64,000 nucleotides of DNA from a virus, in IMG/VR virus record IMGVR_UViG_3300033145_000777, positions 17,183-81,182 of that record; one strand, given 5' to 3'. The translations under genes were made by a program, and so were the position numbers. Position 1 is the stretch's first letter. Each line of letters begins with the position of its first letter. Below the pieces are notes generated by a model, which had not been told where the DNA came from, did no database searches, and was given only the letters and a program-made list of their open reading frames with translations. Positions 1 through 24,359 of the stretch are shown piece by piece.

Positions 1-663
1 CCCCCCGAGATAGAGAAATGTATGCCTGACTATGAGTTATATGGGAGTGATTATAGCATGGGATTCACTACTCGGGGATGTATCAGAAAGTGCCCGTTCT
101 GCATAGTCCATAAGGTGGAGCCGGAGTTCAAATACCATAAGCACCCTCGCGTGTTCCATCACCCGGATCATAAGAAAATAGTGTTCCTTGACAACAACTT
201 CTTAGCGTGCTCTAATCGACTGGAGACCATCCAGTATATCTTGGACCACGACATCAAGGCGTGTTTCAATCAAGGCTTGGACGCACGGCTAATAGATGAG
301 GAGGTGGCGGTCAAGCTCGCGTCGATGAAGCTCTATAACCTGCACTTCACATTCAGAACGATCTACGTGGCCTGGGATTTGATGGATAGCCAAGATGGTG
401 TGTTGAAGGGAATACAGAACCTAATAGATGCAGGGGTAAATCCGAACAACATCAAGGTCTATGTGCTGACTCTCTTCAACACCACCTTCGAAGAGGATAA
501 GTACCGGGTAGAGAAGCTGTTGAAAATGGGCGTCGAACCCTATATCATGAGGTATAATGGGGATAAGTCCAGCAAGGATGTTAACCAACTTGCAAGGTGG
601 TGCGCGAGGCATCTGTATCGGGTATGCAAGTTCGAGGATTATGATCCTAGGAATCACAGGTGA
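1..663 (+). CDS. Radical SAM protein, 5'-truncated by window edge
   Basis: GFTTRGCIRKCPFC (CxxxCxxC) and FLDNNF motifs; frame is open back to base 1. Confidence 0.85.
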   Translation, partial: PPEIEKCMPDYELYGSDYSMGFTTRGCIRKCPFCIVHKVEPEFKYHKHPRVFHHPDHKKIVFLDNNFLACSNRLETIQYILDHDIKACFNQGLDARLIDEEVAVKLASMKLYNLHFTFRTIYVAWDLMDSQDGVLKGIQNLIDAGVNPNNIKVYVLTLFNTTFEEDKYRVEKLLKMGVEPYIMRYNGDKSSKDVNQLARWCARHLYRVCKFEDYDPRNHR

Positions 664-6558: not shown

Positions 6559-6936
6559 GTGTGTTTGGCTACTGTAACACTTTCCGGGTTCAACGTTTTC
6601 ACACAGTATCTAGGTAAACTACAAGATTCACTTGATAGCATTGCAGCTGCTGCTGTTAGAGAGGTTGCTGAGAGTATTCGTGATGATGCAAAGGAATGGG
6701 TAAGAGTTGATACTGGTAGCCTAAGAAAGAGCATCAGGGTTCAAAACCGCAGACTCTCAGGAGGGTTTCACACCATCGGAGTATCAGCTGGTGGGTACGT
6801 CACAAACCCAAAAACAGGAAGAAAGGTAGACTATGCCTTATATGTAGAGGCAGACTATCCATTCTTGAGACCTGCTGTGATGGCACATGCAATGGACTTA
6901 GTTGCCGCAATGAAATGGAGGATGAGCAATGTCTGA
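6559..6936 (+). CDS. HK97 gp10-like tail completion protein
   Basis: VRVDTGSLRKSI, YALYVE, PFLRPA motifs. Confidence 0.75.
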   Translation: MCLATVTLSGFNVFTQYLGKLQDSLDSIAAAAVREVAESIRDDAKEWVRVDTGSLRKSIRVQNRRLSGGFHTIGVSAGGYVTNPKTGRKVDYALYVEADYPFLRPAVMAHAMDLVAAMKWRMSNV

Positions 6937-9900
6937 AGTATTTAGTATTGTAGCATACGTTAAAGCCCGTGTAGATGAGGCTAAGAGGGATTTTGCAACA
7001 TTTCAAAAATCAGTTGACGACAGCAAACAAAGCCTAGATAATTTGGGAACAGCAGGTGACGTTGCAGCTGGGATCCTCATTCAACAATTCAGTCAGAACG
7101 TAGTCAGGGCATTCGAGACATTTGGAAGAGTCACTGTAGACTCGTTTGCAGATTTTGAGACAGCAACTGCACGTATCATAGCCACAACTGGAGCAACAGG
7201 AGATGAGCTGATAGAGCTCACAAGCATTATTGAAGAATCGGCTATGACACTTGGAACCGATTTCGGTGTAGGTGCAGCAAGTGCAATGAGTGGGCTTGAG
7301 TCTTTGGTTAAGGCAGGATTAGACCCAGCAACTGAAGCAACCCAAGCACTGGAAGGAGTCTTACAACTAGCCACGATTGAGCAGATGAACACAGCATCTG
7401 CCGCTAACATGGTTATAGCTGCAATGACTCAGTATGGTCTAAAGGCAAAGGATACCACCAGAATAGTTGACGGGTTCGTTCAAGCATCAGCAGCTGGAAT
7501 TGACACTGCAGCAGGATATGCTAGTGGTCTCGCAAACGTAGGAGCAACGGCAGCCTCAATGGGGTTCAGCATGGAAGAGACATTGGCTACCCTAGTCCAA
7601 ATAGACGCTTCCCAGAAAGATGCACGAAGATCAGGAACATTCCTTAACAGGATGCTTATTGACCTAGCATCCAAATCAAAAGACGCAGGACTGGAAATCT
7701 ACAACGCAGACGGCTCAATGCGATCTATGGATGATATTATCACTGAGCTAAGGGTCAAGATTCAAGGATTCGGCAACGATCAAGCAGCAGTAAACGAATG
7801 GCTAGGACAATTCCAGTCACTCTCACAGAGAGCCATACTCTCCCTAGTAAACTACGATGGAACAATAGAAGACACCCAGATCAAACTCCAAGGTATGTCA
7901 GGTGCCCAGGAAACAGCTAACGTAATTCTAGACACCTACGCTGGTCGCCTTGCTGTAGCTGATGCAAAACAGGAAAGTGCAGCTATTGGGATGGGTGAAG
8001 TAACCTCTGAATTGAGTATAATGAGTGCAGAGTTCATGGCGTCCCTTGGACCCGTAGGTCTCTTAGCAGACTCCCTTGGCCCACCTATGCTTAGTGGAGC
8101 AATGCAGGGCGTTACAATGGTCTTCGTTCCACAGCTGATTAAAACCCTCGGGCAAATGGTAGCCCAGATGGGTTTAGCAACAACCGCATCCACCATCCTT
8201 GGAGGTGCAATGAACATCATGACAGGTCCCATAGGGTGGATTACCCTTGCGGTGGGAGCCCTAGCTTTGGCTTGGAGTAATGATTGGGGAGGCATACAGG
8301 AAAAGACAGGTGCTGTGATTGACTTCATTATGGAGAAGATTGCTTGGGTCACTGATGGGATCTCTTGGTTTGGAGACTCTGTTAGAGGAATACTCAAATG
8401 GGTTGGAGATGGATGGACGGCATTAAATGACACTATCGGTGAGCAACTAGGTAGTCAAGTCGTACTTGTTGAATCAGCTCTTGACGATGAGCTGAATGCA
8501 ATAGAAGATAGCTATGCTGACCAGGTTAGTTTAATCAAAGAATCCTATGTAGAAAGACTATCAGATATAGATGCAGCATTAGCGGGTCAACTCAACGTCT
8601 CTGAGTCACACTATGAGGACTTGAAGAGACTGGCAGAAGAAGCTCATGAAACAGCGTTAACTGATTTACAGGAGCATTGGGTAGACCAGATTGATGAAAC
8701 AGCTGAAGGCTGGGAAAGCGTAGTTGAGGAATACGAGAGCCATTACGCTGATATAATTAATGAAACAACCGAAAGCTATAGCAACCTGCTTTCTGAAACC
8801 GAGACATTCTATGATGATATGCTTGCAGAGCAGAATGCGTTCCTAGTTGCAATAAGGGAAGGTCGAAACCGTGATCTTGATGACCTTGAACTCAATTTCC
8901 TGTTAGAAAAGAAGAAACTCGAAAACCAGCTTGAAAAGAAGAAAATCTCAAAATTCGAATATGAGAAAGATATGGAGAAGCTGGAGAAAGACTACCGGGA
9001 GAAGAGGGCAGAAATCAGGGATGATTACCGCATACAGGAACTGCAGGCGGAAGAAACCTTCAGGACTGAGGAGGAACGCATTAACTCTGAGAGAGCCGAT
9101 GCCCTTGAAACCATTGAAAAGGATAAGGCAGATGAGTTAGAGCGTATCAACGAAGAACAGAACGCAGCCATTCAACTGATTAGAGACGCGGAAGCCGAGC
9201 TTGCAGAGCAACATGCAAAGGAGTTAGAACAGCTTGCACTAGATCATGCAGCTGAACAAGCCCTAATTACATTAGAGGCTAATCGAGAACAGCAAAGGCT
9301 CACATTAGCGAACCAAGAAACACTCAAGAGGTTAGAAACAAAGCTTTACACCGACCTCGAAACAGCTGAGGAGGAGCATAAAACAGTTGTCACTGACACA
9401 TGGACGGACATGTGGGATGACCAGATGCAAACAACTAGAGACGCCACTAATGACATTGAAACAAACGTAGCTAACATGGATTCAGCCCTAGCCACCTCGA
9501 TAGAAGGTCTTAGAGATTGGGCTTCAGACGTCGTTGATGCAGCAAAAAGTGCATATAATAAGGCTAAGGATTGGTGGGACAAAATCTCACGCGGAAATAA
9601 AAGCAGTGGAGGCGGCGGAGGCTCGCGTGATGGAGATGACACCGTAGTTACTGCCCCTGATCTTGATGCTGGAGACACATCACCTTCCACAGAAGGACCA
9701 TGGGGTGGTAGCGAAAGATTTGCGCTTGCCGAGGGCTTTGAGGGATGGGTTGATAAACCCACTAACTTCCTTGCAGGTGAGGCAGGACCCGAATACGTAA
9801 GCGTCACGCCCTCAGGAGCTTCCCGCCAGATTGCTGGCAAGACCACGATCATACATGGTCCTCTTCTTACCATTGAAGGAAGTGCTGATGAGAAGACAGC

Positions 9901-9946
9901 CAAGCTCGCAGCTAAACTTATTATGAGTGAACTGAGGAAATATTGA
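6929..9946 (+). CDS. Tape measure protein (TP901-like core)
   Basis: 1005 aa Ala-rich helical/coiled coil; IYNADGSMRS; C-terminal LAGEAGPEYV. Confidence 0.9.
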   Translation: MSEVFSIVAYVKARVDEAKRDFATFQKSVDDSKQSLDNLGTAGDVAAGILIQQFSQNVVRAFETFGRVTVDSFADFETATARIIATTGATGDELIELTSIIEESAMTLGTDFGVGAASAMSGLESLVKAGLDPATEATQALEGVLQLATIEQMNTASAANMVIAAMTQYGLKAKDTTRIVDGFVQASAAGIDTAAGYASGLANVGATAASMGFSMEETLATLVQIDASQKDARRSGTFLNRMLIDLASKSKDAGLEIYNADGSMRSMDDIITELRVKIQGFGNDQAAVNEWLGQFQSLSQRAILSLVNYDGTIEDTQIKLQGMSGAQETANVILDTYAGRLAVADAKQESAAIGMGEVTSELSIMSAEFMASLGPVGLLADSLGPPMLSGAMQGVTMVFVPQLIKTLGQMVAQMGLATTASTILGGAMNIMTGPIGWITLAVGALALAWSNDWGGIQEKTGAVIDFIMEKIAWVTDGISWFGDSVRGILKWVGDGWTALNDTIGEQLGSQVVLVESALDDELNAIEDSYADQVSLIKESYVERLSDIDAALAGQLNVSESHYEDLKRLAEEAHETALTDLQEHWVDQIDETAEGWESVVEEYESHYADIINETTESYSNLLSETETFYDDMLAEQNAFLVAIREGRNRDLDDLELNFLLEKKKLENQLEKKKISKFEYEKDMEKLEKDYREKRAEIRDDYRIQELQAEETFRTEEERINSERADALETIEKDKADELERINEEQNAAIQLIRDAEAELAEQHAKELEQLALDHAAEQALITLEANREQQRLTLANQETLKRLETKLYTDLETAEEEHKTVVTDTWTDMWDDQMQTTRDATNDIETNVANMDSALATSIEGLRDWASDVVDAAKSAYNKAKDWWDKISRGNKSSGGGGGSRDGDDTVVTAPDLDAGDTSPSTEGPWGGSERFALAEGFEGWVDKPTNFLAGEAGPEYVSVTPSGASRQIAGKTTIIHGPLLTIEGSADEKTAKLAAKLIMSELRKY

Positions 9947-12369: not shown

Positions 12370-12615
12370 ATGAGTATAATAGATTTTAAACAGATCGCGG
12401 CGGAGGCACTCATTGTCAGTAAGGAGCTTCGGCGGCTTGGCACTGAGATGCGTGTGTTCTGCACCAAAGTTGTGAACATTGAGGCTGAGGATAAGGATGG
12501 GGTTGAGACTGTGTTGAAACCCGAGGAGATGAAGACACGGTACATGGAGCTTCGGGCGCAGATTGCGGCGATTGAGTTCCCAACCAAAGTCACACCACCG
12601 GAGGTTGACCCATAA
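12370..12615 (+). CDS. Hypothetical protein
   Basis: GGTGGTG RBS; coupled to next gene. Confidence 0.55.
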   Translation: MSIIDFKQIAAEALIVSKELRRLGTEMRVFCTKVVNIEAEDKDGVETVLKPEEMKTRYMELRAQIAAIEFPTKVTPPEVDP

Positions 12616-14024
12616 TGGTGCTTGAAGAACATCTTGTCTGTGACCTCAGGATGAACGAAGGCAGCGGCACAGTCACCCGTGATCGGAGTGGGAATGATGC
12701 TAAGGGAACCTTCGGGGCAGGAGGCGAGGCTCCGTCATGGGCTGACGGAAAATGGGGTATAGGAAAAGCTCTATCCTTTGATGGTGGAGACATCCTCACA
12801 GTTAATGACTTAATCACATTACTTGCTGCCGTGGAATCTGGGGCTATTGAGGCATGGGCGAAAATTGACACCGACGCAGGAGCCAATGAGACTATATTCA
12901 GCGTGTCAAGGAACGTAAACGCCACTCTAACTGAACTACTAGTCCTATATAATACAGGTGGGGCTACCGATAACTTCATAATAGTGTTAAGAGTGGACGG
13001 GACAACTCAATGGTCGGCAGCGAGTGCCGTAGGTACTGTTGACCCGTATATTGGAGAATATGTTCACTTGGTTTTAACTCAAGATGGGATTGAGCCCACT
13101 TTGTCTATTAACGGGAACTTATCTCCGTTGATTTTTAGTGATGAGACTGATAAAACAGCGTGGTTTAAGGCATTGATAACGGATGCCGCCAGCCCATCTG
13201 ATGTGGCTACTGTTGGGGCGGTTATAAGAAATGGCGCCAAATCAATACACCTCACTGGTGATGTTCAGGTTCTCCGGGTCTATGATGCTGTGCCTTCTCC
13301 TCAGCAAGTTCGGGCGTTGTATGCGGAGGGACTCATTAAGCTCCGTGATGGTAGGGTGTTGGATATGCCTTTCAACGAAGGCTCAGGAACCGTGACAAGG
13401 GATAGAAGCCCATCAGACATTCAGGGTGTTTTGACTCCGGGGGCAGGAGGATGGGTAGAAGGAAGAAACGGGAGGCAGGCGATTGATTTCGATGGCGCCG
13501 ATACTAGGGTGAATTGTGGGAATCCGTCCTCTGTTGACAACATCTTTGATGGTGGTGGTTCGCTTAGTGTGTGGATTAACCCAGACTCAGATGGAGAAGC
13601 AGGATCAGGGAGAATATTCGATAAACGAGATCCGGGGTGGCTATGTCTTGTCAAATCCGAAGCTGGTGGAAAAGTTGAGGTTAGGCTACATCAGGACTTT
13701 GATATAACTGACGGGGTGTGGGACACAACATTCCCAATAGTTGTGATTGGAGAAGACACCCATTTGGTGATAACTTACGACAGCATGGATGTTGGAAATG
13801 ACCCGATTTTCTACATAAACGGAGTGTCATACACTGTAGACAATGGAATAACAGAGACAACCACTCCCGAGGGTTCTAGTGCGGATGACAGCACAAAGAG
13901 CCTTGGATTAGGTGGGAGGACAACTGGAACTAATGTTTTCGATGGCAAAATCGACTCACCCCTTCTTTATAAAAGAATTCTTTCTCCAAGAGAAGTTCGT
14001 GAACTGTACGAGGCGACAAAGTAA
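12615..14024 (+). CDS. Tandem LamG/ConA-like domain protein (putative receptor-binding)
   Basis: Two repeats beginning NEGSGTVTRDRS, with ALSFDG/AIDFDG and LS..EV..LY ends. Confidence 0.8.
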   Translation: MVLEEHLVCDLRMNEGSGTVTRDRSGNDAKGTFGAGGEAPSWADGKWGIGKALSFDGGDILTVNDLITLLAAVESGAIEAWAKIDTDAGANETIFSVSRNVNATLTELLVLYNTGGATDNFIIVLRVDGTTQWSAASAVGTVDPYIGEYVHLVLTQDGIEPTLSINGNLSPLIFSDETDKTAWFKALITDAASPSDVATVGAVIRNGAKSIHLTGDVQVLRVYDAVPSPQQVRALYAEGLIKLRDGRVLDMPFNEGSGTVTRDRSPSDIQGVLTPGAGGWVEGRNGRQAIDFDGADTRVNCGNPSSVDNIFDGGGSLSVWINPDSDGEAGSGRIFDKRDPGWLCLVKSEAGGKVEVRLHQDFDITDGVWDTTFPIVVIGEDTHLVITYDSMDVGNDPIFYINGVSYTVDNGITETTTPEGSSADDSTKSLGLGGRTTGTNVFDGKIDSPLLYKRILSPREVRELYEATK

Positions 14025-16115: not shown

Positions 16116-16883
16116 ATGGCGAGAGATCCCAAAGGTAGATTTGTTAAAGGTCATATTCCTTGGATCAAGGGTAGAAAGGCGTCTGAGGAAACTAAGCAGA
16201 AACTTGTTGAAAGCCACAAGGGGCAGGTTCCTTGGAATAAGGGTGTAACAGGCTATACTACTTCATGGAAGGGTCGGAAACATTCTGAAGAAACTAAGCA
16301 AATATTGAAAGAAACCCGTAAGAGGCAGATATTCACTGACGAAACTCGGAAGAAAATGAGTGACACGAAGAAAAGAATGGGGAATGAACCTTTACTGAAT
16401 CACATTAAAGAACACGGTTCATGGAATAAGGGCTTGACCAAGGAAACGGATGACCGGGTAAAAAAATACGGGGAGTCTCAGAAGGGTAAGGTCATTTCTG
16501 AGGAGACTAGGCAGAAAAATCGTGAGGCCAGAATGAAACAGCGACTACCCAAAAAAGATACCTCTATTGAACTTGCCTTACAAAGGGGACTTGATGTGGT
16601 AGGCATTAACTATGACACCCATCTTCCAGTCTGTGGTATATGTCAACCTGATATAGTTTTTCCTGAAATGAAACTCGCAGTTTTTGCTGATGGGGATTAC
16701 TGGCATAACCTTCCCGGAAAAAGAGAAAAAGACTTAAAACAAAACCAAGTTTTGAAGGAGAACGGCTGGACAGTTCTCCGTTTCTGGGGACGTGAGATAA
16801 ATTCTGATATAGAGGGTTGTGTTAATAAGATTAGGAAACATATAGGCTTTCTCATCAGGGTAGACAAGGACATGATGAAATGA
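16116..16883 (+). CDS. Free-standing homing endonuclease: NUMOD3-like repeats + Vsr/DUF559 nuclease
   Basis: HSEETKQ and PWNKG repeats; PDIVF...AVFADGDYWH...GWTVLRFW. Confidence 0.8.
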   Translation: MARDPKGRFVKGHIPWIKGRKASEETKQKLVESHKGQVPWNKGVTGYTTSWKGRKHSEETKQILKETRKRQIFTDETRKKMSDTKKRMGNEPLLNHIKEHGSWNKGLTKETDDRVKKYGESQKGKVISEETRQKNREARMKQRLPKKDTSIELALQRGLDVVGINYDTHLPVCGICQPDIVFPEMKLAVFADGDYWHNLPGKREKDLKQNQVLKENGWTVLRFWGREINSDIEGCVNKIRKHIGFLIRVDKDMMK

Positions 16884-18403
16884 AGATAAAAGATAAAGTC
16901 AAGATGCGGGGACGATGTCGTTTCACGATAAGAGACGCCGAGACGGGAGAGATCGTTGAGCAGACTCCTTGGAGAGATAACCTAGTCACGGATGTCGGAG
17001 AAGAAATGTACGCCCAATTAATGAAGGGAGACACAATAGACCCATGCAATTACTGCGCCGTAGGCGATGATAACACACCAGCCGCCGAAGCCGACACAGT
17101 TCTAGGCTCTGAGCTAGGACGACTTGAGGTAACGGAAATAACCATCGCAGGCTCCGTTGTCACTTACAGCACATTCTTCGGGTCAGGCGACGCCAATGGT
17201 TGTTATGATGAGTTAACTGAATGTCTAACTGAGGGTGGCTGGAAATACATTAAAGATGTTCAAAAAGGAGAACAAATATTAACCTTAAATGAACAAGGAT
17301 GCCTGGAGTATCAACCTAACCTAAAAACCCATAAATATTCACACTCAGGAATCATGTATTCCTTACAGCGTCCTGGACGATTCAATCTTCTTATTACCCC
17401 AAAACACTGGTTAATCGTAAAGAATCATTCATGGCATGACCATATGAGAAGGTCAAAAATATTAACAGGGAGACAATGGCACCATGATTTATTTAAACCT
17501 GTAATGACCGAAAACTGTCTTCATGGAAAATGGGATATGATTAAATCAGGAGAATGGCATGGGGAAGAACCAGAGACCATTACTATTCCGGCTTTAAAAT
17601 ACAAAATGCAGGCGTGGAAAACAAAATATATAAAAGAGAAACCTGAAAGAAAATTTAAAACATCCCCCTTCCTAAAGCTGACGGCTTGGTATCTTTCAGA
17701 AGGTTCAGTTGATTATGGTACGACCGGTAATCCTAATAGAACTAAAATTAGTCAAATAAAAAAGGAAGAAAACCGACAAGAAATTGTTGAATTGTGTAAA
17801 GAATTAAAACTAAATTACTCAATAAACAAAAAAGGAATTAACATAAATGATAACCAGATAGCTACTTACTTTACCGCTTTTGGAAAAAACGCCCTGGAAA
17901 AAAGATCACCCTTATACATTAAACGATTATCCCAAAAACTAATTCAAGAGTTCCTCCACACATATATGAAGGGGGATGGCAATCTCAAAAAGAACTATCT
18001 TTTCACTTCATCACCGGCAATGAGAGATGATCTCCAAGAACTAGGCATCAAAGCAGGATATGGTGCAGACTATACTGCATACATATCTTCAAACAGCTTT
18101 TCTGAAAAAGAAAAATATACAATTCGATTATTAAAAGGAAAATCACACTTAGCTATTGGGCGTGGACACTCTTTAAAACCCGTGCCTTTTTCAGGGTTTG
18201 TATATTGTTTAGAGGTGCCTAACCATGTTTTTCTAGTTAGACGAGAAGGAAAAACGGTGTTTTGTGGAAACACATGGTGGGAAGTAGGTATGCTTAACGC
18301 AGCGGTAGGTGGAGTCCTAATTGCTCGTACCGTTCTAGGAGGCGCACAGGTAAAAAACGCAGCGAACACAGTGACGATAGATTATGAGCTTTCTGTTACT
18401 TGA
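16880..18403 (+). CDS. Small tail/collar-type structural protein (150 aa mature) with intein
   Basis: NLVTDVG, AVGDDNTPA..DT.L..ELGR, ANG|TWWEVGML, TIDYELSV. Confidence 0.75.
   Translation: MKIKDKVKMRGRCRFTIRDAETGEIVEQTPWRDNLVTDVGEEMYAQLMKGDTIDPCNYCAVGDDNTPAAEADTVLGSELGRLEVTEITIAGSVVTYSTFFGSGDANGCYDELTECLTEGGWKYIKDVQKGEQILTLNEQGCLEYQPNLKTHKYSHSGIMYSLQRPGRFNLLITPKHWLIVKNHSWHDHMRRSKILTGRQWHHDLFKPVMTENCLHGKWDMIKSGEWHGEEPETITIPALKYKMQAWKTKYIKEKPERKFKTSPFLKLTAWYLSEGSVDYGTTGNPNRTKISQIKKEENRQEIVELCKELKLNYSINKKGININDNQIATYFTAFGKNALEKRSPLYIKRLSQKLIQEFLHTYMKGDGNLKKNYLFTSSPAMRDDLQELGIKAGYGADYTAYISSNSFSEKEKYTIRLLKGKSHLAIGRGHSLKPVPFSGFVYCLEVPNHVFLVRREGKTVFCGNTWWEVGMLNAAVGGVLIARTVLGGAQVKNAANTVTIDYELSVT
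17201..18271 (+). mobile_element. Intein (357 aa) with LAGLIDADG-type endonuclease
   Basis: Starts CYDELTECLTEGGWK, block B LITPKH, AWYLSEGS and YMKGDG, ends VYCLEVPNHVFLVRREGKTVFCGN followed by Thr. Confidence 0.9.
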
Positions 18404-18416
18404 GGTTGATTTGATA

Positions 18417-18515
18417 ATGATAGTCGATACAGATAAAGAGAACAACGCATATTCTAATTTGGTGACGCTGTGTCCGAGGTGTCATGGGTTAGACATAGGA
18501 AAATCAATAAGTTGA
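18417..18515 (+). pseudogene. HNH endonuclease C-terminal remnant
   Basis: Translates MIVDTDKENNAYSNLVTLCPRCHGLDIGKSIS*. Confidence 0.6.
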
Positions 18516-18526
18516 GTGTGGTTTAG

Positions 18527-18892
18527 ATGGCTGAGAAAATAGGTGAACCAATTCCTCGGGAACTCTGGGATCTTCTGGAATTAAACCTTAAGATACGCGA
18601 CGAAGAGTATCAGATTAAAGGCTGGAGGGCAGCTGTTTTCCGTGAGTTTCTGATAAACGGTGCAGCCATGACCCCTGACGGGGTACATAGTTTTATCGCT
18701 GCAAACGGTATGTTCAAAATTGACTCTAAAACTGTGATTGAGTTCCTATTCAAACAAGAAGAAGAGGGGATGCTCACAAGCCGTAGAGAACCCAGCGCAA
18801 AAACTCCGCATAAATCTAGACTGGTTTTTGTTTCAGCGTTTCACCCAGAGATGATTCAGTATCAAATGATAAAACACAAGGAGGAGAACTAA
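18527..18892 (+). CDS. Hypothetical protein (possible winged helix)
   Basis: 121 aa ORF; helix-then-wing-like C-terminus. Confidence 0.45.
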   Translation: MAEKIGEPIPRELWDLLELNLKIRDEEYQIKGWRAAVFREFLINGAAMTPDGVHSFIAANGMFKIDSKTVIEFLFKQEEEGMLTSRREPSAKTPHKSRLVFVSAFHPEMIQYQMIKHKEEN

Positions 18893-18893
18893 G

Positions 18894-19544
18894 CTGCCAG
18901 GACAAAAGTGGATTACTGGAGATGTTATTACCTTCGCTCGTATGAATCAGAAAACCCTCATAGTTCAAGCTGCAGAGCCCACAATTATGTATGTGGGCAT
19001 GTGCTGGTTTGATGTAGATGATGATAGATTGAAGGAGAGGAATGCAGCTAACGCTGCATGGATAGAACGCCCAGGCGTCACTCTGACAGCTACTATCTCG
19101 GGTCTTTGGACTTTTGACCGTGGGGCTGCTGTCCCATTCGCTGTGGATGCAGCGAGCCTGAAGGTTACGAACCTTGACGCTGACAAGGTAGATGGACAGC
19201 ACAGAGTTCTTAACATTAATGCTGACCATGACCATGAGGGCGCAGGTGCAGAGGGCGGAACCCTTGACGTTGCCGCTATTGCCTCAGGGATCCTTAGTGT
19301 GGCGAGGGGAGGAACAGCACTCGCCGCGTATGCACAGGGAGGAATACTATACATTTCAGGTGCAAACACCCTCTCAAGGTTAGCCCCAGCCGCAGCTAAC
19401 CGGGTGTTGAGATCAACTGGAGCGAATGCACTTGAGTTCGGAGTCCTTGTTACAGCAGACATTCCCACCCTCACTATAGCCAAACTCTCAGATCACAACA
19501 AAGCAAACCATGATTCACTGTTGATTTATGCGAGGTATGCTTAA
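18894..19544 (+). CDS. Tail fibre-like protein, probable CTG start
   Basis: GAGGAG RBS before CTG; WITGDVITFARMN, NLDADKVDG and LSVARGGT fibre motifs. Confidence 0.7.
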   Translation: MPGQKWITGDVITFARMNQKTLIVQAAEPTIMYVGMCWFDVDDDRLKERNAANAAWIERPGVTLTATISGLWTFDRGAAVPFAVDAASLKVTNLDADKVDGQHRVLNINADHDHEGAGAEGGTLDVAAIASGILSVARGGTALAAYAQGGILYISGANTLSRLAPAAANRVLRSTGANALEFGVLVTADIPTLTIAKLSDHNKANHDSLLIYARYA

Positions 19545-19559
19545 GAGGACTTGAATAGT

Positions 19560-19988
19560 ATGCCGTTTGTCTGGACCCAGAACATCGCAGTCGATGCCCT
19601 AATAGAAGCAGCTGACGTCAATGAGGTCAAAACCAACCTTGATTCCATTTACACAGCCTTGGGGATCACTAGAGGGGGATGTGGGGCTGGAGGAGGATGG
19701 GTTGAACTCCCCGTAGGAGTTGGTGACTTGATTGAGTCAGCTGACTTTCAGGAGATGAGGGATGTCACTGACTTTGCCTACGACAACAGGTGTCCCTCTT
19801 TTGATGCCGCTGATTTTGGGTCTGATGAGGCAGTGCATGATGAAGGCGTCGATGTTGGAGATAACACGGGTTATAATAGTGACGACGACTCAAGCTATGA
19901 CGATAATGATCACGGCACTTATGAGTCAGGACACGATACAAGCGTTAATGATTACGATGACGACTCATTTAATGATATAAACGTGTAA
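19560..19988 (+). CDS. Asp/Asn-rich tetrapeptide-repeat protein A (candidate radical SAM substrate)
   Basis: MPFVWTQNIAVDALIEAAD N-terminal motif present twice; DNRC then 15 tetrads. Confidence 0.8.
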   Translation: MPFVWTQNIAVDALIEAADVNEVKTNLDSIYTALGITRGGCGAGGGWVELPVGVGDLIESADFQEMRDVTDFAYDNRCPSFDAADFGSDEAVHDEGVDVGDNTGYNSDDDSSYDDNDHGTYESGHDTSVNDYDDDSFNDINV

Positions 19989-20003
19989 GGTGGAAATGAA
20001 AAA

Positions 20004-20300
20004 ATGCCGTTTGTTTGGGTGCAGAACATCGCCGTAGACGCATTAATCGACTCAGCTGACTTGGCGGAGATTCGAACTAATGTAGATTGGGTGGAAGATA
20101 ACAAATGTGCTGCCCATGATACAGGGCATGATTTAACAAATCATGGTCCCGTTGATAATGGGGATGATGCACCCGTGAACGTCGGAGAAGATGGCACCTA
20201 TGACTCTGGAGATAATGACGGATATGATGGCACAAAAAACGCTGGTGCTAACTCTGGGGAAGATGGCAGTTACAATAATGGAGACAACAACGTCGTTTAG
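20004..20300 (+). CDS. Asp/Asn-rich tetrapeptide-repeat protein B, paralog of A
   Basis: MPFVWVQNIAVDALIDSAD; DNKC then 15 x-[D/N]-x-x tetrads. Confidence 0.8.
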   Translation: MPFVWVQNIAVDALIDSADLAEIRTNVDWVEDNKCAAHDTGHDLTNHGPVDNGDDAPVNVGEDGTYDSGDNDGYDGTKNAGANSGEDGSYNNGDNNVV

Positions 20301-20312
20301 AAGGTAAATAAA

Positions 20313-21629
20313 ATGAGTCTTGTAGCAGCAGAAATGTTAACCACGGGTACATGCCCTTTCAACTGTTCATATTGCTATATTCCTAAAACGGAGTATATGA
20401 AGGAAATACACGCCAAGCTAGTTGAGCATCTTCAAAACGGGAACTACATTGAGTTACTGAAAAAAGTCTATGGTGAAAACCTTACTCATTTAGGGCTCTG
20501 GGGTACAGAACCTACGCTCACAATACCACTGATTGCTGATCTTTTACCAGCACTGTTAAATGAGTTTCCTCTTCTGAAGGAGATAAAGTTTTCAACAGCT
20601 ATGATTTCAGACCCTTTGATTATAGCGAACTTTGCTAAAGCATTATCTAAAACAGGAGTTAAGATTAACCTCAGCGTTCAGATGTCTCTTGATGGTCCCT
20701 CATGGATTACTGATAAAAATAGGATGCGTGGAGCCGCTGCTCTTGTCCCTAAGAATCTATATGCTCTTGTTAGGATTCTGAATGATCATGACCTCAATGA
20801 AACAACAGTCGAGTTCCGATGGAAGGCAACTCATAGCATCGAAACAATCAAAATATTTGCTAATAGTAAAAAAAGGATTCACGAGTATCTTGGCTTCTTT
20901 GAGTCTATACGTCGCCGCTTCAACAAGATCAATAAAAACAAAAACATGAAACTTGTCTCAACCTCGGCTCCGACAACTCTCGTAGTACCAGGAAAATACA
21001 CCAGCACAGATGGTAAAATATTCGCAAAATACCTAAAGACCCTCCACAAAGCAGACTATGAATCCACTTATAGTAGTCGGCTGAATAAAATCTTCAAGTA
21101 TGGAAGGGATATAGACAAAAGGAGAATGTTTACATGTAGTGGTGGTGACTCCAATCTCGGCATAGCCCCAGGTCGGATACACATCTGTCACCGCACCTTC
21201 TACCTAGACGATGACAAATACATTCAATCAGTCTTAGCATCTGAAAGCTCAGTTGGCGACGTAGAAAATTGGGACATATCCCTTTTCCGTAAAGGTACAA
21301 TAGATTTTGTGAGGGACAACTACATTGTTCCCGTCTCTGACCTACCTCGGTTCCTATACGTGATGCGTGGCTATCATGATTTCTGGCGGCTACAACTTGG
21401 GCATGTAAGAGCTATGTTGATAGAGTTAGCACTCGCTGGTCAAGCAGATGAAGTATATATAGACGATGAGGAACTAGCCTCTCTGTTCTGTCTTTTTATG
21501 GAAACAGCCTTAACCTGTCCGATGGAGAACTTGTTAAATACCGGGTCTATCCACCTTCAAACTGTATCCTTGATAAGGCTGTTTGCAAACGGAGCTTTCC
21601 AAGAACTCCTAAAGGAGGCACAACGATGA
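20313..21629 (+). CDS. Radical SAM enzyme with partial SPASM/twitch-like tail
   Basis: CPFNCSYC, WGTEPTL, SLDGP, CSGG...ICHR. Confidence 0.9.
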   Translation: MSLVAAEMLTTGTCPFNCSYCYIPKTEYMKEIHAKLVEHLQNGNYIELLKKVYGENLTHLGLWGTEPTLTIPLIADLLPALLNEFPLLKEIKFSTAMISDPLIIANFAKALSKTGVKINLSVQMSLDGPSWITDKNRMRGAAALVPKNLYALVRILNDHDLNETTVEFRWKATHSIETIKIFANSKKRIHEYLGFFESIRRRFNKINKNKNMKLVSTSAPTTLVVPGKYTSTDGKIFAKYLKTLHKADYESTYSSRLNKIFKYGRDIDKRRMFTCSGGDSNLGIAPGRIHICHRTFYLDDDKYIQSVLASESSVGDVENWDISLFRKGTIDFVRDNYIVPVSDLPRFLYVMRGYHDFWRLQLGHVRAMLIELALAGQADEVYIDDEELASLFCLFMETALTCPMENLLNTGSIHLQTVSLIRLFANGAFQELLKEAQR

Positions 21630-22939
21630 GTTATCAACAAGAAAACGATACCCTAATCACCTCTCTATTTGAGCGAACATTCTTCGAGTCATGGAACGCG
21701 AACCCCCCGGAACTCTCAAACTTCCATAGGGTCGAGTTTATACTTAACTACAAATGCAACCTTGCTTGCAAATATTGCTATGTAACCCATTATGGGGATG
21801 AACTTTATCCTCCAGAACTCTATAAAGATGAAGCACAAGTGCTAAATAACCTAGAGATGGTGCTTGATTGGTTTATAGAAAACAATTATGCTCCAGAAAT
21901 AGAGGTATTCTCAGGAGAAGCACTCATTCAAGATATAGGCTATAAAGCCTTGAATATGATTCTTGATAAATTTGAAGGAAAGATCAAGACCCGTATTATC
22001 ATCCCGACAAACTACACCTTCATTCTTTCAAAAACGCTAACCAAACAAGTTGAGACGCTCTTAAACCGAGGTAAAAAAATAGGGATACCCATTTTTCTGA
22101 GTGCTTCATTTGATGGAAAATATTGCGAGGCTAATCGTCCCTTCCAGCCTGGAGTTAAAGACTTGCGTGATGATGATTATTATGATAAGTGCTTTGCCTT
22201 CATTAAGAAATGGGGCTTCGGGTTCCACCCAATGATTTACTCTGAAAAAATTAGAAACTGGAAGGATAATTTCCTTTGGTTCCAAGAGATGCTTAAAAAA
22301 CATAACATCCCTTGGTATAGGATATACCTCTTATCCGTCCGTAATGCTGAGTGGAGTATTCAACAAACCCGTGATTTTCACGATTTTATTGAGTTTCTAA
22401 TAAAATGGGTCTATGATAATCCATGCAACAAAGACCCTAAGAAATACCTAGATTTTCTATTCAAAAAGCGTGGATTCAATATCCTCAATGGTCCTCTTTC
22501 TACTGTAGGCAGAGGAATTGGGTGTTCCCTTCAGTCACAGTTATTTTTACGGCTGGGTGACTTAGCTATTGTTCCATGTCATAGAACTAGCTACGAGCAC
22601 TTGATCTTAGGACACCTAAAAGTGGAGGACAACAAAATCGCAGGGATCTCCGCAAAGAACCCAGAGTTAGCAGTAACCAAACACTCGTTTAGTGCAAAAA
22701 TGTTTCCTTATTGTGAGACCTGTCTTATCCGTGAACTTTGCAGCTTCGGGTGCTTGGGAGCGCAGATTGAGACAACAGGTGATTTATTCACGCCCATTCC
22801 CACCGTTTGTCGTCAGCAACACGCTAAAATAAGGAGCATGATTAAAACCTATCAGGAACTTAATATGCTTGATTTAATTCTCAGTAATCTTAGCACTGAG
22901 AAAGTGTACGCAATCAAAAAATTGGTTGAAATAATATGA
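21626..22939 (+). CDS. Radical SAM/SPASM enzyme
   Basis: CNLACKYC, FSGEAL, SFDG, GIGC...PCHR...CETC.....CSFGC...C. Confidence 0.9.
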   Translation: MSYQQENDTLITSLFERTFFESWNANPPELSNFHRVEFILNYKCNLACKYCYVTHYGDELYPPELYKDEAQVLNNLEMVLDWFIENNYAPEIEVFSGEALIQDIGYKALNMILDKFEGKIKTRIIIPTNYTFILSKTLTKQVETLLNRGKKIGIPIFLSASFDGKYCEANRPFQPGVKDLRDDDYYDKCFAFIKKWGFGFHPMIYSEKIRNWKDNFLWFQEMLKKHNIPWYRIYLLSVRNAEWSIQQTRDFHDFIEFLIKWVYDNPCNKDPKKYLDFLFKKRGFNILNGPLSTVGRGIGCSLQSQLFLRLGDLAIVPCHRTSYEHLILGHLKVEDNKIAGISAKNPELAVTKHSFSAKMFPYCETCLIRELCSFGCLGAQIETTGDLFTPIPTVCRQQHAKIRSMIKTYQELNMLDLILSNLSTEKVYAIKKLVEII

Positions 22940-23496
22940 GTGAACAGAAAAACCCACAAGAGATGTTTGATGAAAAGATAGAGACAATCGAAAAGATCAT
23001 GGAACATAAAACAGATTTCACACAAACCTACGGTAATAAAGGAAGTGACATGATCATAGCCGCTTTCGACATTATGCGCGTCCAGTTTAGTGCTGCCATT
23101 CAACTGGAAACCTTGGAAGAGTCAGCCAAACTCGCAGTACAAGAGAAAACAGAGGTAGTTGAAAAAGCGTTAAAACTAATGCTCGACGTAGCCCTCTACA
23201 GGCCGATAACCAAAATAGTTCGTCACCTATCCCTTGAAGTCACAGAGTTTGCCAAAAACTGGAATGATCAAGTCCCTCAATGTCCAAATATAGCACAAAA
23301 GATCGCGGTTCTATCACGCATCGTGTCATCCCAGAAAACTATGGATGATACTATCCAGATCACAAAGAAGTTGCTGGAGAAGCTACAACGAGAAATGAGC
23401 AGACGCCCGGTAGCCTATGAGCTTTCTAAGCACTACCTTGAAAGCACAGACTTTTCAATCAAGAGACGAAATGAAAAACAAAAGGAGGTGAAGTGA
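22936..23496 (+). CDS. Helical protein coupled to the radical SAM genes
   Basis: ATGA overlap with upstream gene; all-alpha composition. Confidence 0.65.
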   Translation: MSEQKNPQEMFDEKIETIEKIMEHKTDFTQTYGNKGSDMIIAAFDIMRVQFSAAIQLETLEESAKLAVQEKTEVVEKALKLMLDVALYRPITKIVRHLSLEVTEFAKNWNDQVPQCPNIAQKIAVLSRIVSSQKTMDDTIQITKKLLEKLQREMSRRPVAYELSKHYLESTDFSIKRRNEKQKEVK

Positions 23497-23726
23497 TGAA
23501 AGTACACATTGATCGGATTCGTTTGCTTGAAGACTTCGTACACGTAAAATATTCGTTAAACGAAAGCACTGTTGTTGGCTCTGTAAGAATACCTGCCGCA
23601 GGGTTTCAGGAAGAGTGGATTCCAGCAGCGATTAAGCGAGACCTTCTGCTAAAAGAAGAAGAACGTGGGATCATAGAAGACCTAGTTCAGACGCTCGAAG
23701 GTCAGGAAATAGACATCCCCGAGTAG
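23493..23726 (+). CDS. Hypothetical protein, last gene of tail/rSAM operon
   Basis: GGAGGTG RBS; overlap with upstream stop. Confidence 0.6.
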   Translation: MMKVHIDRIRLLEDFVHVKYSLNESTVVGSVRIPAAGFQEEWIPAAIKRDLLLKEEERGIIEDLVQTLEGQEIDIPE

Positions 23727-23742
23727 TGGATTAAAGAACAAC

Positions 23743-23796
23743 TTTAGTCCATAAACTTTATATAAGTATTTGGGAAAGAAAGTACGACTCAAAATG
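23743..23796 (+). promoter_or_regulatory. Repeated promoter/start motif, copy 2 (type A)
   Basis: TTTAGTCCATAAACTTTATATAAG...CGACTCAAAATG. Confidence 0.75.
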
Positions 23797-24096
23797 CAAA
23801 AGAATAAAAACAGGATAGCAGAGCCTAAAGGATTTATAAAACAGATAGAGTTCACGGCAATTCTTATCGGAGTAGTACTCCTACTAGGAAGCTACCTCGT
23901 TCTTCTGTACACCTTCATGAGTGCATGGTTTAGCCCAATAAAAACTGTGGTCGTTCACATTAACCAGCTGGGAGAAGCACTACCGGAGCTTATATTCCTA
24001 ACACTGACCTTTCCATGTGTATGTTATTTACTCGCTCGACTTAAATGGAGTAATAAAACCAAACGTATATGGATTGACGTTAAACCATCAGAATAG
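23794..24096 (+). CDS. Small membrane protein
   Basis: Two hydrophobic segments; start set at the motif ATG. Confidence 0.6.
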   Translation: MQKNKNRIAEPKGFIKQIEFTAILIGVVLLLGSYLVLLYTFMSAWFSPIKTVVVHINQLGEALPELIFLTLTFPCVCYLLARLKWSNKTKRIWIDVKPSE

Positions 24097-24159
24097 AGTA
24101 ATATAAAAAATAGCCAACCCTCTCTAGTACAGTAGTAACGAAAGCATTATTAACCCATA

Positions 24160-24174
24160 TTATAACCGTTATAA
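24160..24174. promoter_or_regulatory. Palindromic candidate operator
   Basis: TTATAAC-C-GTTATAA just upstream of RHH-like gene. Confidence 0.5.
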
Positions 24175-24182
24175 GGATTAAA

Positions 24183-24359
24183 ATGTCGGAAGATAAAGCG
24201 TTGATTCAAGTCTCCGTTGAACTCCGTGATACCCTGAAATCACAAAGAAGGATAAAGCCCGATGGTGAACTTGAAACCATCGAGGAAGTCCTTCACAGGA
24301 AAACTATGGAGAAAGGGCTAGACTTGAGAGGCAGGAAGATAGGTCACGATGAGAGGTAA
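24183..24359 (+). CDS. Ribbon-helix-helix-like protein (58 aa, below ORF-track cutoff)
   Basis: ALIQVSVELRDTLKSQRRIKPDGELETIEEVL. Confidence 0.6.
   Translation: MSEDKALIQVSVELRDTLKSQRRIKPDGELETIEEVLHRKTMEKGLDLRGRKIGHDER

Follow-up and report, generated by a model that had tools for sequence, protein, structure and literature searches.

What use could a virus have for two radical S-adenosylmethionine (SAM) enzymes in its tail module, and why are two small repeat proteins encoded right beside them? The question is raised by a 64,000-nucleotide stretch of DNA (hereafter, the window) from an uncultivated tailed virus. Its IMG/VR record (IMGVR_UViG_3300033145_000777), of which the window spans bases 17183-81182, is 81 kb long and has direct terminal repeats. 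On its plus strand, the window holds genes for two short proteins that end in four-residue repeats (A and B), for two radical SAM enzymes (rSAM1 and rSAM2), and for a protein of 186 residues (p186), and these five genes are a conserved cassette borne mostly by viruses. What might such a cassette make? We argue that A and B are probably the substrates of the two enzymes, and we lean, with less assurance, toward the view that the repeat tails of both are modified by the enzymes together with p186 and that the products, uncleaved, join the viral tail. An original prediction, made by a model from the letters of the window, had proposed a peptide-maturation system of this kind; its gene set, the N-terminal motif shared by A and B, and their Cys hinge could all be found again in the sequence, as could the radical SAM motif of each enzyme and gene overlaps of 4 nt.

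One Conserved Unit

Do the repeat proteins and the enzymes belong together at all? The original prediction had named homologous enzyme pairs without repeat proteins as an observation that would count against it. An IMG/VR scan with an alignment query yielded 47 loci from 71 pattern matches (locus queries with a single protein, rSAM2 or B, gave no relative), and a scan of species genomes yielded at least 24, of which 8 are close (L049-L056) and 16, with distant radical SAM genes only, serve as controls. The 47 loci and the 8 close ones among the matches listed make up the 55 related loci discussed here, the window itself being L001; many are near-duplicates (e.g., L012/13, L018/19, L020/29/32, and L033-36), and by eye, there are ~40 independent lineages.

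An rSAM1-type gene adjoins rSAM2 in 53 of the 55 loci, and the other two end at a contig boundary. Members of the A/B cluster are present in at least 40/55, the calling of single open reading frames (ORFs) having missed some repeat genes (e.g., in L020). When ORFs were taken from all six frames, a match to the hidden Markov model of the N-domain or an ORF with a period-4 tail lay on the same strand within 5 kb in 42/55 loci vs. 0/16 controls. Of the 13 loci left over, six are cut within 1.5 kb upstream, the four near-identical loci L033-36 have weaker A/B-like genes, L050 has a repeat protein of another kind (HxsA3-like) instead, and L037 and L056 are exceptions to which we return. Gene order varies between lineages, with the precursors before, after, or between the enzyme pair, and the set stays together. 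The link was thus upheld, and the counts support the view that the A/B repeat proteins and the two radical SAM genes are one conserved unit.

Where does this unit live? In a sample of 401 genomes belonging to the same phylum as that of L050, the enzyme family occurs in one, L050's own; viruses are therefore its main carriers or, at a minimum, its occurrence in cells is sporadic. Close relatives of the cassette among the matches listed lie on contigs labelled archaeal (Nanohalarchaeota and Thermoplasmata) and candidate phyla radiation bacterial, and a few of the relatives of rSAM2 (552 at E ≤ 0.001 among 2650 candidates, many of them 50-58% identical) are source-labelled as proteins of Parcubacteria, Paceibacterota, or Colwellbacteria metagenome-assembled genomes (MAGs). 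A DNA search of phage sequences with the 4.9-kb cassette region gave no match. The radical SAM genes of L040-42 are broken under translation table 11 by TGA only (4-6 per gene) and those of L030, L031, and L045 by TAG only (3-13 per gene); because a single type of stop breaks them, the cassette occurs also in viruses in which one stop codon is probably translated as an amino acid.

The Repeat Proteins

Protein A (19560..19988, plus strand; 142 aa) was listed as an ORF from a TTG at 19551; because all 96 relatives align from residue 4 of that ORF and because AGAGGA precedes the ATG at 19560, we take the latter as the real start. Its N-domain of ~80 aa is made of two copies of a W...I..A.D.NE...N.D motif and is followed by a near-invariant hinge, Cys78, and 15 acidic tetrads; W5 is invariant, and E22, N26, W47, P51, R67, D71, and C78 are conserved in at least 90% of 61 sequences. 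Protein B (20004..20300, plus strand; 98 aa) has a short N-domain with one copy of the motif, then hinge Cys35, then 15 tetrads, and such a pair, the copy with the full domain first and the one with the short domain after it, is seen in 29 loci (26 without duplicates). When 1.84 billion representatives were searched by phmmer with A as the query, 96 proteins came up, 33 of them at E ≤ 1e-10; the 25 inspected are small, with an ~80-aa N-domain up to the hinge Cys and a variable repeat tail after it.

That A and B each have exactly 15 tetrads, with D or N at position 2 in 11/15 (A) and 14/15 (B), is borne out when they are read in register from the hinge Cys. As a general feature, the number does not hold: members of the A/B cluster span 75 to 505 aa, and the count is particular to this virus. 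The tail of A contains 21 D+E and 0 K+R, and neither tail in the window contains a Cys.

Is the four-residue period more than an impression? Measured against 300 shuffles, the G/S/T residues of A give z = 2.5 at lag 4 and z = 4.4 at lag 8, with D/N at lag 4 reaching only z = 1.5; for B, the G/S/T values are 3.3 and 4.3, and D/N gives 3.7. The small residue is thus periodic in both proteins, D/N clearly so in B alone. Across 76 family tails (22 of 98 sequences were excluded because the search pattern did not match their hinge), G/S/T exceeds z = 2 in 93% at lag 4, in 0% at lag 3, and in 1% at lag 5. The period-4 pattern is, that is, a family trait. Across the family, position 4 with its small residue is better conserved than position 2 with its D/N. 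Written as a consensus, the tetrad reads [Y/H/V/D/E]-[N/D]-[S/T]-[G/S/T]; two residues past Tyr/His/Phe/Trp, Ser/Thr shows a 1.7- to 2.1-fold enrichment. Nearly all of the 76 tails (95%) are net negative, with a median of -0.12 per residue. D or N stands four residues past the hinge Cys in 46/76 relatives, and a C-x-x-x-[D/N] occurs just once, at the hinge. The L020-type lineage encodes four tandem period-4 proteins that are rich in Tyr/His/Ser/Lys and have no N-domain.

The conserved N-terminal part had been described as a leader. A short leader peptide it is not: AlphaFold2 (AF2) models residues 1-80 of protein A with a predicted local distance difference test score (pLDDT) of 84-96 as two helices and extended segments, which points to a folded domain, and in one relative, it has taken up a lectin domain. 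This relative (L012:4992-6188; the same in L013) is an A-type protein in which a Laminin_G_3 lectin domain (60.4 bits) sits between the two N-domain motifs, with the repeat tail after them, and because of that insertion, a displayed binding protein fits better than a removable leader.

The Enzymes and Their Probable Partner

What kind of enzymes are these? The first, rSAM1 (20313..21629, plus strand; 438 aa), carries CX3CX2C, the motif that binds the SAM-cleaving 4Fe-4S cluster, at residues 14-21 and matches PF04055 at 33.4 bits, above the cut-off of 29.5. It has three further invariant Cys (275, 292, and 402) where the SPASM motif, CX9-15GX4C ... CX2CX5CX3C ... C for two auxiliary clusters, has seven, and its auxiliary domain is, as judged from these residues, a reduced, twitch-like one. 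In rSAM2 (21626..22939, plus strand; 437 aa), CX3CX2C is at residues 44-51, and C300, C318, C363, C366, C372, C376, and C395 as well as G311 are invariant in 44 relatives, a pattern that reads as a full seven-Cys SPASM domain, although the model scores are subthreshold (TIGR04085 at 23.8 vs. 27 bits and PF04055 at 24.5 vs. 29.5 bits). The cluster motif is conserved in 97% of 37 rSAM1-family and 100% of 44 rSAM2-family sequences. With this Cys conservation and a 4-nt overlap, the earlier description of two translationally coupled radical SAM genes, one with a full and one with a partial SPASM domain, stands. The two families are distant paralogs (hhalign probability 97.3%, E 2.5e-11). The nearest solved chains to rSAM1 are ChlB, CteB, anSME, and SkfB, and 8VPO is also among the nearest solved chains; against models of RiPP (ribosomally synthesized and posttranslationally modified peptide) and protein maturases, both score 13-46 bits (cut-offs 150-855), the matches covering general radical SAM/SPASM parts only. 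Both are nearest to SPASM/twitch radical SAM enzymes that modify peptides or proteins.

Directly coupled to rSAM2 is p186 (22936..23496, plus strand), whose family is present in 37/55 loci. AF2 models it as six helices and nothing else (pLDDT 92.2); it has no Pfam, NCBIfam, or Protein Data Bank (PDB) relative (profile searches were at chance level, and Foldseek against PDB gave none above noise), and a protein atlas offered no usable feature match. In L021, L023, and L027, the radical SAM genes are separated, and each has its own copy of p186 behind it, which suggests that p186 partners each enzyme. A complex prediction of rSAM2 with p186 and with A as partner, run without controls, scored 0.01 and counts for neither side.

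The last three junctions (rSAM1/rSAM2, rSAM2/p186, and p186/p77) are 4-nt overlaps, and a Shine-Dalgarno-like stretch precedes each of A, B, and rSAM1. The last of these coupled genes, the small ORF p77 (23493..23726, plus strand), has no family match and no relative beyond the window's own DNA (L001) in 72 retrieved loci. Two coupled accessory genes had been proposed; both are coupled and p186 is conserved, but it is doubtful that p77 belongs to the unit.

A Place in the Tail Module

Why think of the virion? In the window, the cassette comes after the tape-measure-to-fibre block, and in unrelated viruses, the gene upstream of it encodes a DUF2793 tail fibre, a central-fibre-J-like protein, a tape measure, or an F5/8-type-C tail protein. 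The proposal of a tail- or fibre-module product therefore survives as far as position goes; a likeness between the leader and the N terminus of the fibre has no statistical support. Within a locus, the longer the tail of one copy, the longer that of the other tends to be (26 pairs, Spearman 0.48, p = 0.014), in data that are noisy and pairs that are not independent. A GT1-family glycosyltransferase gene (PF00534, 37.3 bits; L003:9891-10877) directly follows p186 or the precursors in 12/55 loci, and this neighbor hints that the tails, rich in Ser/Thr/Asn, are perhaps also glycosylated in some lineages.

A Proposed Mechanism

How could the parts work together? In the anoxic cytoplasm, rSAM1 and rSAM2, each with p186, would act over and over along the period-4 tails of both repeat proteins, with [Y/H/V/acidic]-[N/D]-[S/T]-[G/S/T] as the substrate tetrad. 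Our guess at the chemistry is that small side-chain cross-links are made, which would stiffen an otherwise disordered chain. These could be of the aromatic-x-Ser/Thr kind, either as three-residue cyclophanes or as the change made to a His-Xaa-Ser (HxS) repeat of the bacterial protein HxsA; alternatively or in addition, a thioether could join the hinge Cys and the D/N that follows it by four residues. We favour the aromatic-x-Ser/Thr cross-links, with the hinge thioether as a possible addition, because of the residue pattern and the nearest enzyme families. The folded N-domain would not be cut off; it would serve in docking or assembly, and the modified protein would stay whole in the tail as a fibre tip or whisker.

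One might go further and imagine that tailed viruses of anaerobic, mostly uncultivated hosts apply RiPP-type radical chemistry to their own particle, stapling a period-4 chain, one tetrad after another, until it is a rigid, covalently cross-linked fibre tip or whisker that resists proteases. This larger picture is tentative, and we would sooner bet against it than for it; if true, it would be the first enzymatically cross-linked virion fibre.

What Speaks Against It, and What Else It Could Be

Several results weigh against maturation of A and B for the viral tail, and they are best faced together. On the side of the substrates, A and B match no known precursor family in Pfam or NCBIfam; the tail of A is modelled at a pLDDT of 42-50, a low-confidence model; and fold searches with the model of A (Foldseek against PDB and BFVD and VIA wide) gave nothing above noise, the best VIA wide match having Z 5.4 over 78 residues at a root mean square deviation of 3.1. 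The aromatic position holds Tyr/His/Phe/Trp in some tetrads and other residues in the rest, and a cross-link to aromatic residues could therefore account for no more than part of the modification. On the side of the enzymes, neither reaches the cut-off of any named maturase family in NCBIfam, and no recognition domain of the PqqD-like RiPP recognition element (RRE) type was found in rSAM1, rSAM2, or p186; with cluster motifs that start at residues 14 and 44, the enzymes have no room for an N-terminal one. For the unit as a whole, the second accessory gene, p77, is without relatives in any other locus, and no repeat protein was detected beside the enzyme pair in L037 and L056, two loci whose flanks are complete. 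For the virion, hhalign gave a probability of 0.1-0.2% for similarity of the A/B family to the neighboring fibre (read from 18894) and to a DUF2793 fibre. The N-domain as a demonstrable fibre anchor was accordingly dropped. Finally, the likely substrate in L050 and L055 matches the N-terminal part of the HxsA3 model, which brings us to the first of the alternatives.

Could the modified repeat proteins be effectors that act during infection, with no place in the virion? By analogy with the HXS anti-phage system (Li et al., Nat Commun 2026, PMC13128918), they might act in superinfection exclusion, in the manner of HxsA, or as an acidic neutraliser of a basic, HxsA-like gatekeeper of the host. 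In that report, HxsB, HxsC, and HxsD, the last of which HxsC binds, mature the whole protein HxsA, which is processed at its N terminus and in which one HxS repeat is altered by +8 Da; the matured product, whose repeats are basic and bind DNA, blocks phage DNA entry (PMC13128918). To judge from the same report, HXS is the only characterised system with a repeat protein, two radical SAM enzymes, and a small partner, and the 95% of tails that are net negative could be set against those basic repeats (PMC13128918). The enzyme trio, moreover, is found inside an Hxs locus twice. L050:3183-9846, on a Saccharibacteria-labelled MAG contig, encodes HxsD (64.2 bits, cut-off 50), an HxsD-like protein (70.1, cut-off 41), HxsB (514, cut-off 370), a Cys-rich protein, an HxsA3-like repeat protein (55.6, cut-off 65), and rSAM1-rSAM2-p186, the trio taking the place of HxsC; L055:2281-9780, also Saccharibacteria-labelled, encodes a TPR protein where L050 has the Cys-rich one and shares the other gene clusters with it. 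Of the links to known systems, this one tells the most, and it connects the trio independently to the maturation of repeat proteins. Given a likely HxsA3-like substrate in both, and given that HxsA itself is processed and exported in E. coli (PMC13128918), the trio is not tied to virions.

We nonetheless hold it unlikely that A and B are effectors. The position in the tail module is maintained across unrelated viruses, one A-type protein carries an inserted lectin domain, and the L020-type tails are Tyr/His/Lys-rich rather than acidic. In a PADLOC search, A and B had no match, and the enzymes had only weak matches to viperins at the level of radical SAM proteins. Accessory genes often lie near fibre genes, a point that does count for effectors.

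Might A and B instead be fibre parts that are never modified, a Ca2+-binding or a trimeric beta-helix with an eight-residue period, while the enzymes have a different target, be it some other tail protein, a host molecule, or a cofactor? Eight-residue repeats are found in the triple-stranded beta-helices of phage spikes, D/N/G-rich repeats can bind Ca2+, and in A and B, the lag-8 signal is as strong as that at lag 4. The two loci with enzymes and no repeat genes, L037 and L056, point the same way, and the glycosyltransferase behind the cassette in 12/55 loci is a reminder that other modifications may matter. We consider this quite unlikely, in view of how tightly the enzyme pair and the repeat genes stay linked through rearrangements and of the trio in L050 and L055, which again stands behind a repeat protein, one whose N-terminal part is of quite another kind.

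In a classical RiPP pathway, the N-domain would be a long leader that is cleaved, and a modified repeat peptide—an antibiotic, a metal binder, or a signal—would be released at lysis. A conserved N-terminal part followed by a variable core fits this well enough, and the best, albeit weak, matches of the enzymes are to the RiPP maturases PapB, Nif11-type, CefB, and AmcB. The absence of a recognisable protease or transporter, on which the original prediction had leaned, does hold for the cassette in the window, and neither a peptidase nor an exporter was found in the window or in the other lineages whose neighbors were scanned; the sole cassette peptidase seen is of the M28/M42 type, encoded between the precursors and rSAM1 in a single lineage (L014:5826-6761; the same in L053), where it would suit a released peptide. 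Set against release are A/B cluster members of up to 505 aa, an N-domain that AF2 predicts to be folded and that tolerates a lectin insertion, and the missing RRE in either enzyme or p186, although recognition may also proceed without one; we judge release very unlikely. That A and B are a chance pair of low-complexity ORFs is ruled out, since the lag-4 signal runs through the family and the N-domain is conserved in 96 relatives.

The Surroundings in the Window

Upstream of the cassette, all on the plus strand, come the tape-measure gene (6929-9946), a gene for a Laminin_G_3 protein (12615-14024), a NUMOD3 and Vsr/DUF559 endonuclease gene (16116-16883), the intein-bearing, fibre-type gene for a 507-aa tail-type protein directly after it (16880-18403), and a fibre-like gene (18942..19544). 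PHROG tail/fibre matches cover residues 6-114 of the 507-aa protein; the middle of the protein matches PhoH and ribonucleotide-reductase families that bear inteins and, weakly, Hint. The fibre-like protein (200 aa), which lies outside the conserved cassette and is given for context only, has a single weak PHROG match, no Pfam family, and no relative among 71 retrieved loci. In the window at 18890-18944, the TAA of a 121-aa gene (18890-18892) is followed by 16 codons in frame with the ATG of the fibre-like gene, and this stretch (18894-18941) encodes a W..GD.IT...MN-type motif; because of it, the fibre-like gene may start upstream at a noncanonical codon or may be joined to the previous gene by a change of frame.

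Downstream, a TTTATATA box (23757..23764, plus strand), read from the sequence ~30 nt before the ATG of the next gene at 23794, likely marks the start of the next transcription unit; we take it to resemble an archaeal TATA element. A scan of 18300-24300 for sigma-70 promoters showed no excess (10 sites vs. 12.4 expected). A third radical SAM gene, cut by the start of the window (1-663; phrog_9298 "radical SAM domain protein," E 1.2e-47), has a helicase gene after it and is not a member of the cassette.

Comparison with Known Systems

How new is all of this? Our literature search turned up no paper on such a system in a virus, although the supplementary files of the HXS paper, which the search did not cover, could list related systems. 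Outside peptide antibiotics, maturation by radical SAM enzymes of a whole protein with short repeats has recent precedents in the bacterial defence effector HxsA (PMC13128918) and the archaeal protein CrpA (PMC13692751). If the proposed maturation is real, a virus-borne version in a tail module would extend it to virus particles, and the Cys-free, period-4 tetrads would be a new class of substrate motif for enzyme discovery. Two small substrates, two enzymes, and one partner also make a compact set for expression.

Which of the characterised families come near? The CXXX-repeat system (TIGR04114/04115/04119; PF27846), known from annotation models only, shares with the cassette a period-4 target and two maturases, and in the protein atlas, A lies near viral clusters with 23-25% PF27846 members (feature scores 0.80-0.86, which are leads only). 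The target of that system, however, has a Cys at every fourth residue where the window tails have 0 Cys, and the enzymes score 12.6 and 16.4 bits against TIGR04115 (cut-off 350) and 16.4 against TIGR04119 (cut-off 150). The PapB/ranthipeptide family (NF047865), with CX3D/E motifs in its precursors, gives 45.7 and 36.5 bits, short of its cut-off of 340.

In triceptides, SPASM maturases cross-link aromatic-X-X motifs into three-residue cyclophanes. The enzymes in question (XyeB, GrrM/OscB, FxsB, YhhB, and AmcB) are SPASM radical SAM enzymes, as ours appear to be, and their precursors hold many aromatic-x-x repeats; on the side of the cassette, part of the tetrads have Tyr/His, then N/D, then Ser/Thr. 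Many window tetrads, in contrast, have no aromatic residue at all, and the scores against GrrM/OscB (TIGR04261), YhhB (NF041707), AmcB (NF041718), and XyeB (TIGR04496) are 18.9-26.7 bits, far from cut-offs of 310-450. Large or folded proteins as substrates of SPASM/twitch enzymes are a trait of CrpC/CrpA, QhpD (TIGR03906), anSME (PDB 4K37), and CteB (PDB 5WGG), which are among the nearest models and solved chains, yet all scores are far below the family cut-offs. Their substrates are modified at Cys (Ser/Cys for anSME), whereas the tails of A and B have none and the hinge has the only one that could take part. CrpC is a SPASM enzyme that cross-links the archaeal, Cys-rich protein CrpA (PMC13692751).

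The closest known system is HXS. In both, with HXS as its report describes it (PMC13128918), a repeat protein would be matured whole by two adjacent radical SAM enzymes together with a small partner that binds one of them, and both have a short-period repeat with His/Ser-type residues. The differences are as plain. Judged by the HXS models (NCBIfam TIGR03976-03978 and NF038309 for HxsA/B/C/D), rSAM1 reaches 21.1 bits for HxsB (TIGR03978, cut-off 370) and 13.5 for HxsC (TIGR03977, cut-off 267.9), rSAM2 reaches 20.7 for HxsB, and p186, A, and B have no NCBIfam match and thus none to the HxsD or HxsA models. The helical p186, with its 186 aa, is unrelated to HxsD (hhalign probability 0.6% against the HxsD of L050). 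The period is four, with no lag-3 signal, where that of HXS is three; neither a signal peptide nor a peptidoglycan-binding domain was seen in the window proteins; and the cassette, which is encoded by viruses in their tail modules and has acidic tails, differs from a system whose repeats are basic and that, in the same report, occurs almost exclusively in Pseudomonadota (PMC13128918).

The viral cassette, in other words, follows the same logic as HXS and falls outside it by every mark of membership that we could apply. If viruses do staple their own whiskers, the two would be counterparts in logic, the one a barrier by which the host stops DNA from entering and the other an acidic array of tails that may protect the entering genome from basic, HxsA-like gatekeepers, and the comparison would bear both on the chemistry of HxS-type repeats and on the contest between phage and host over the entry of DNA.

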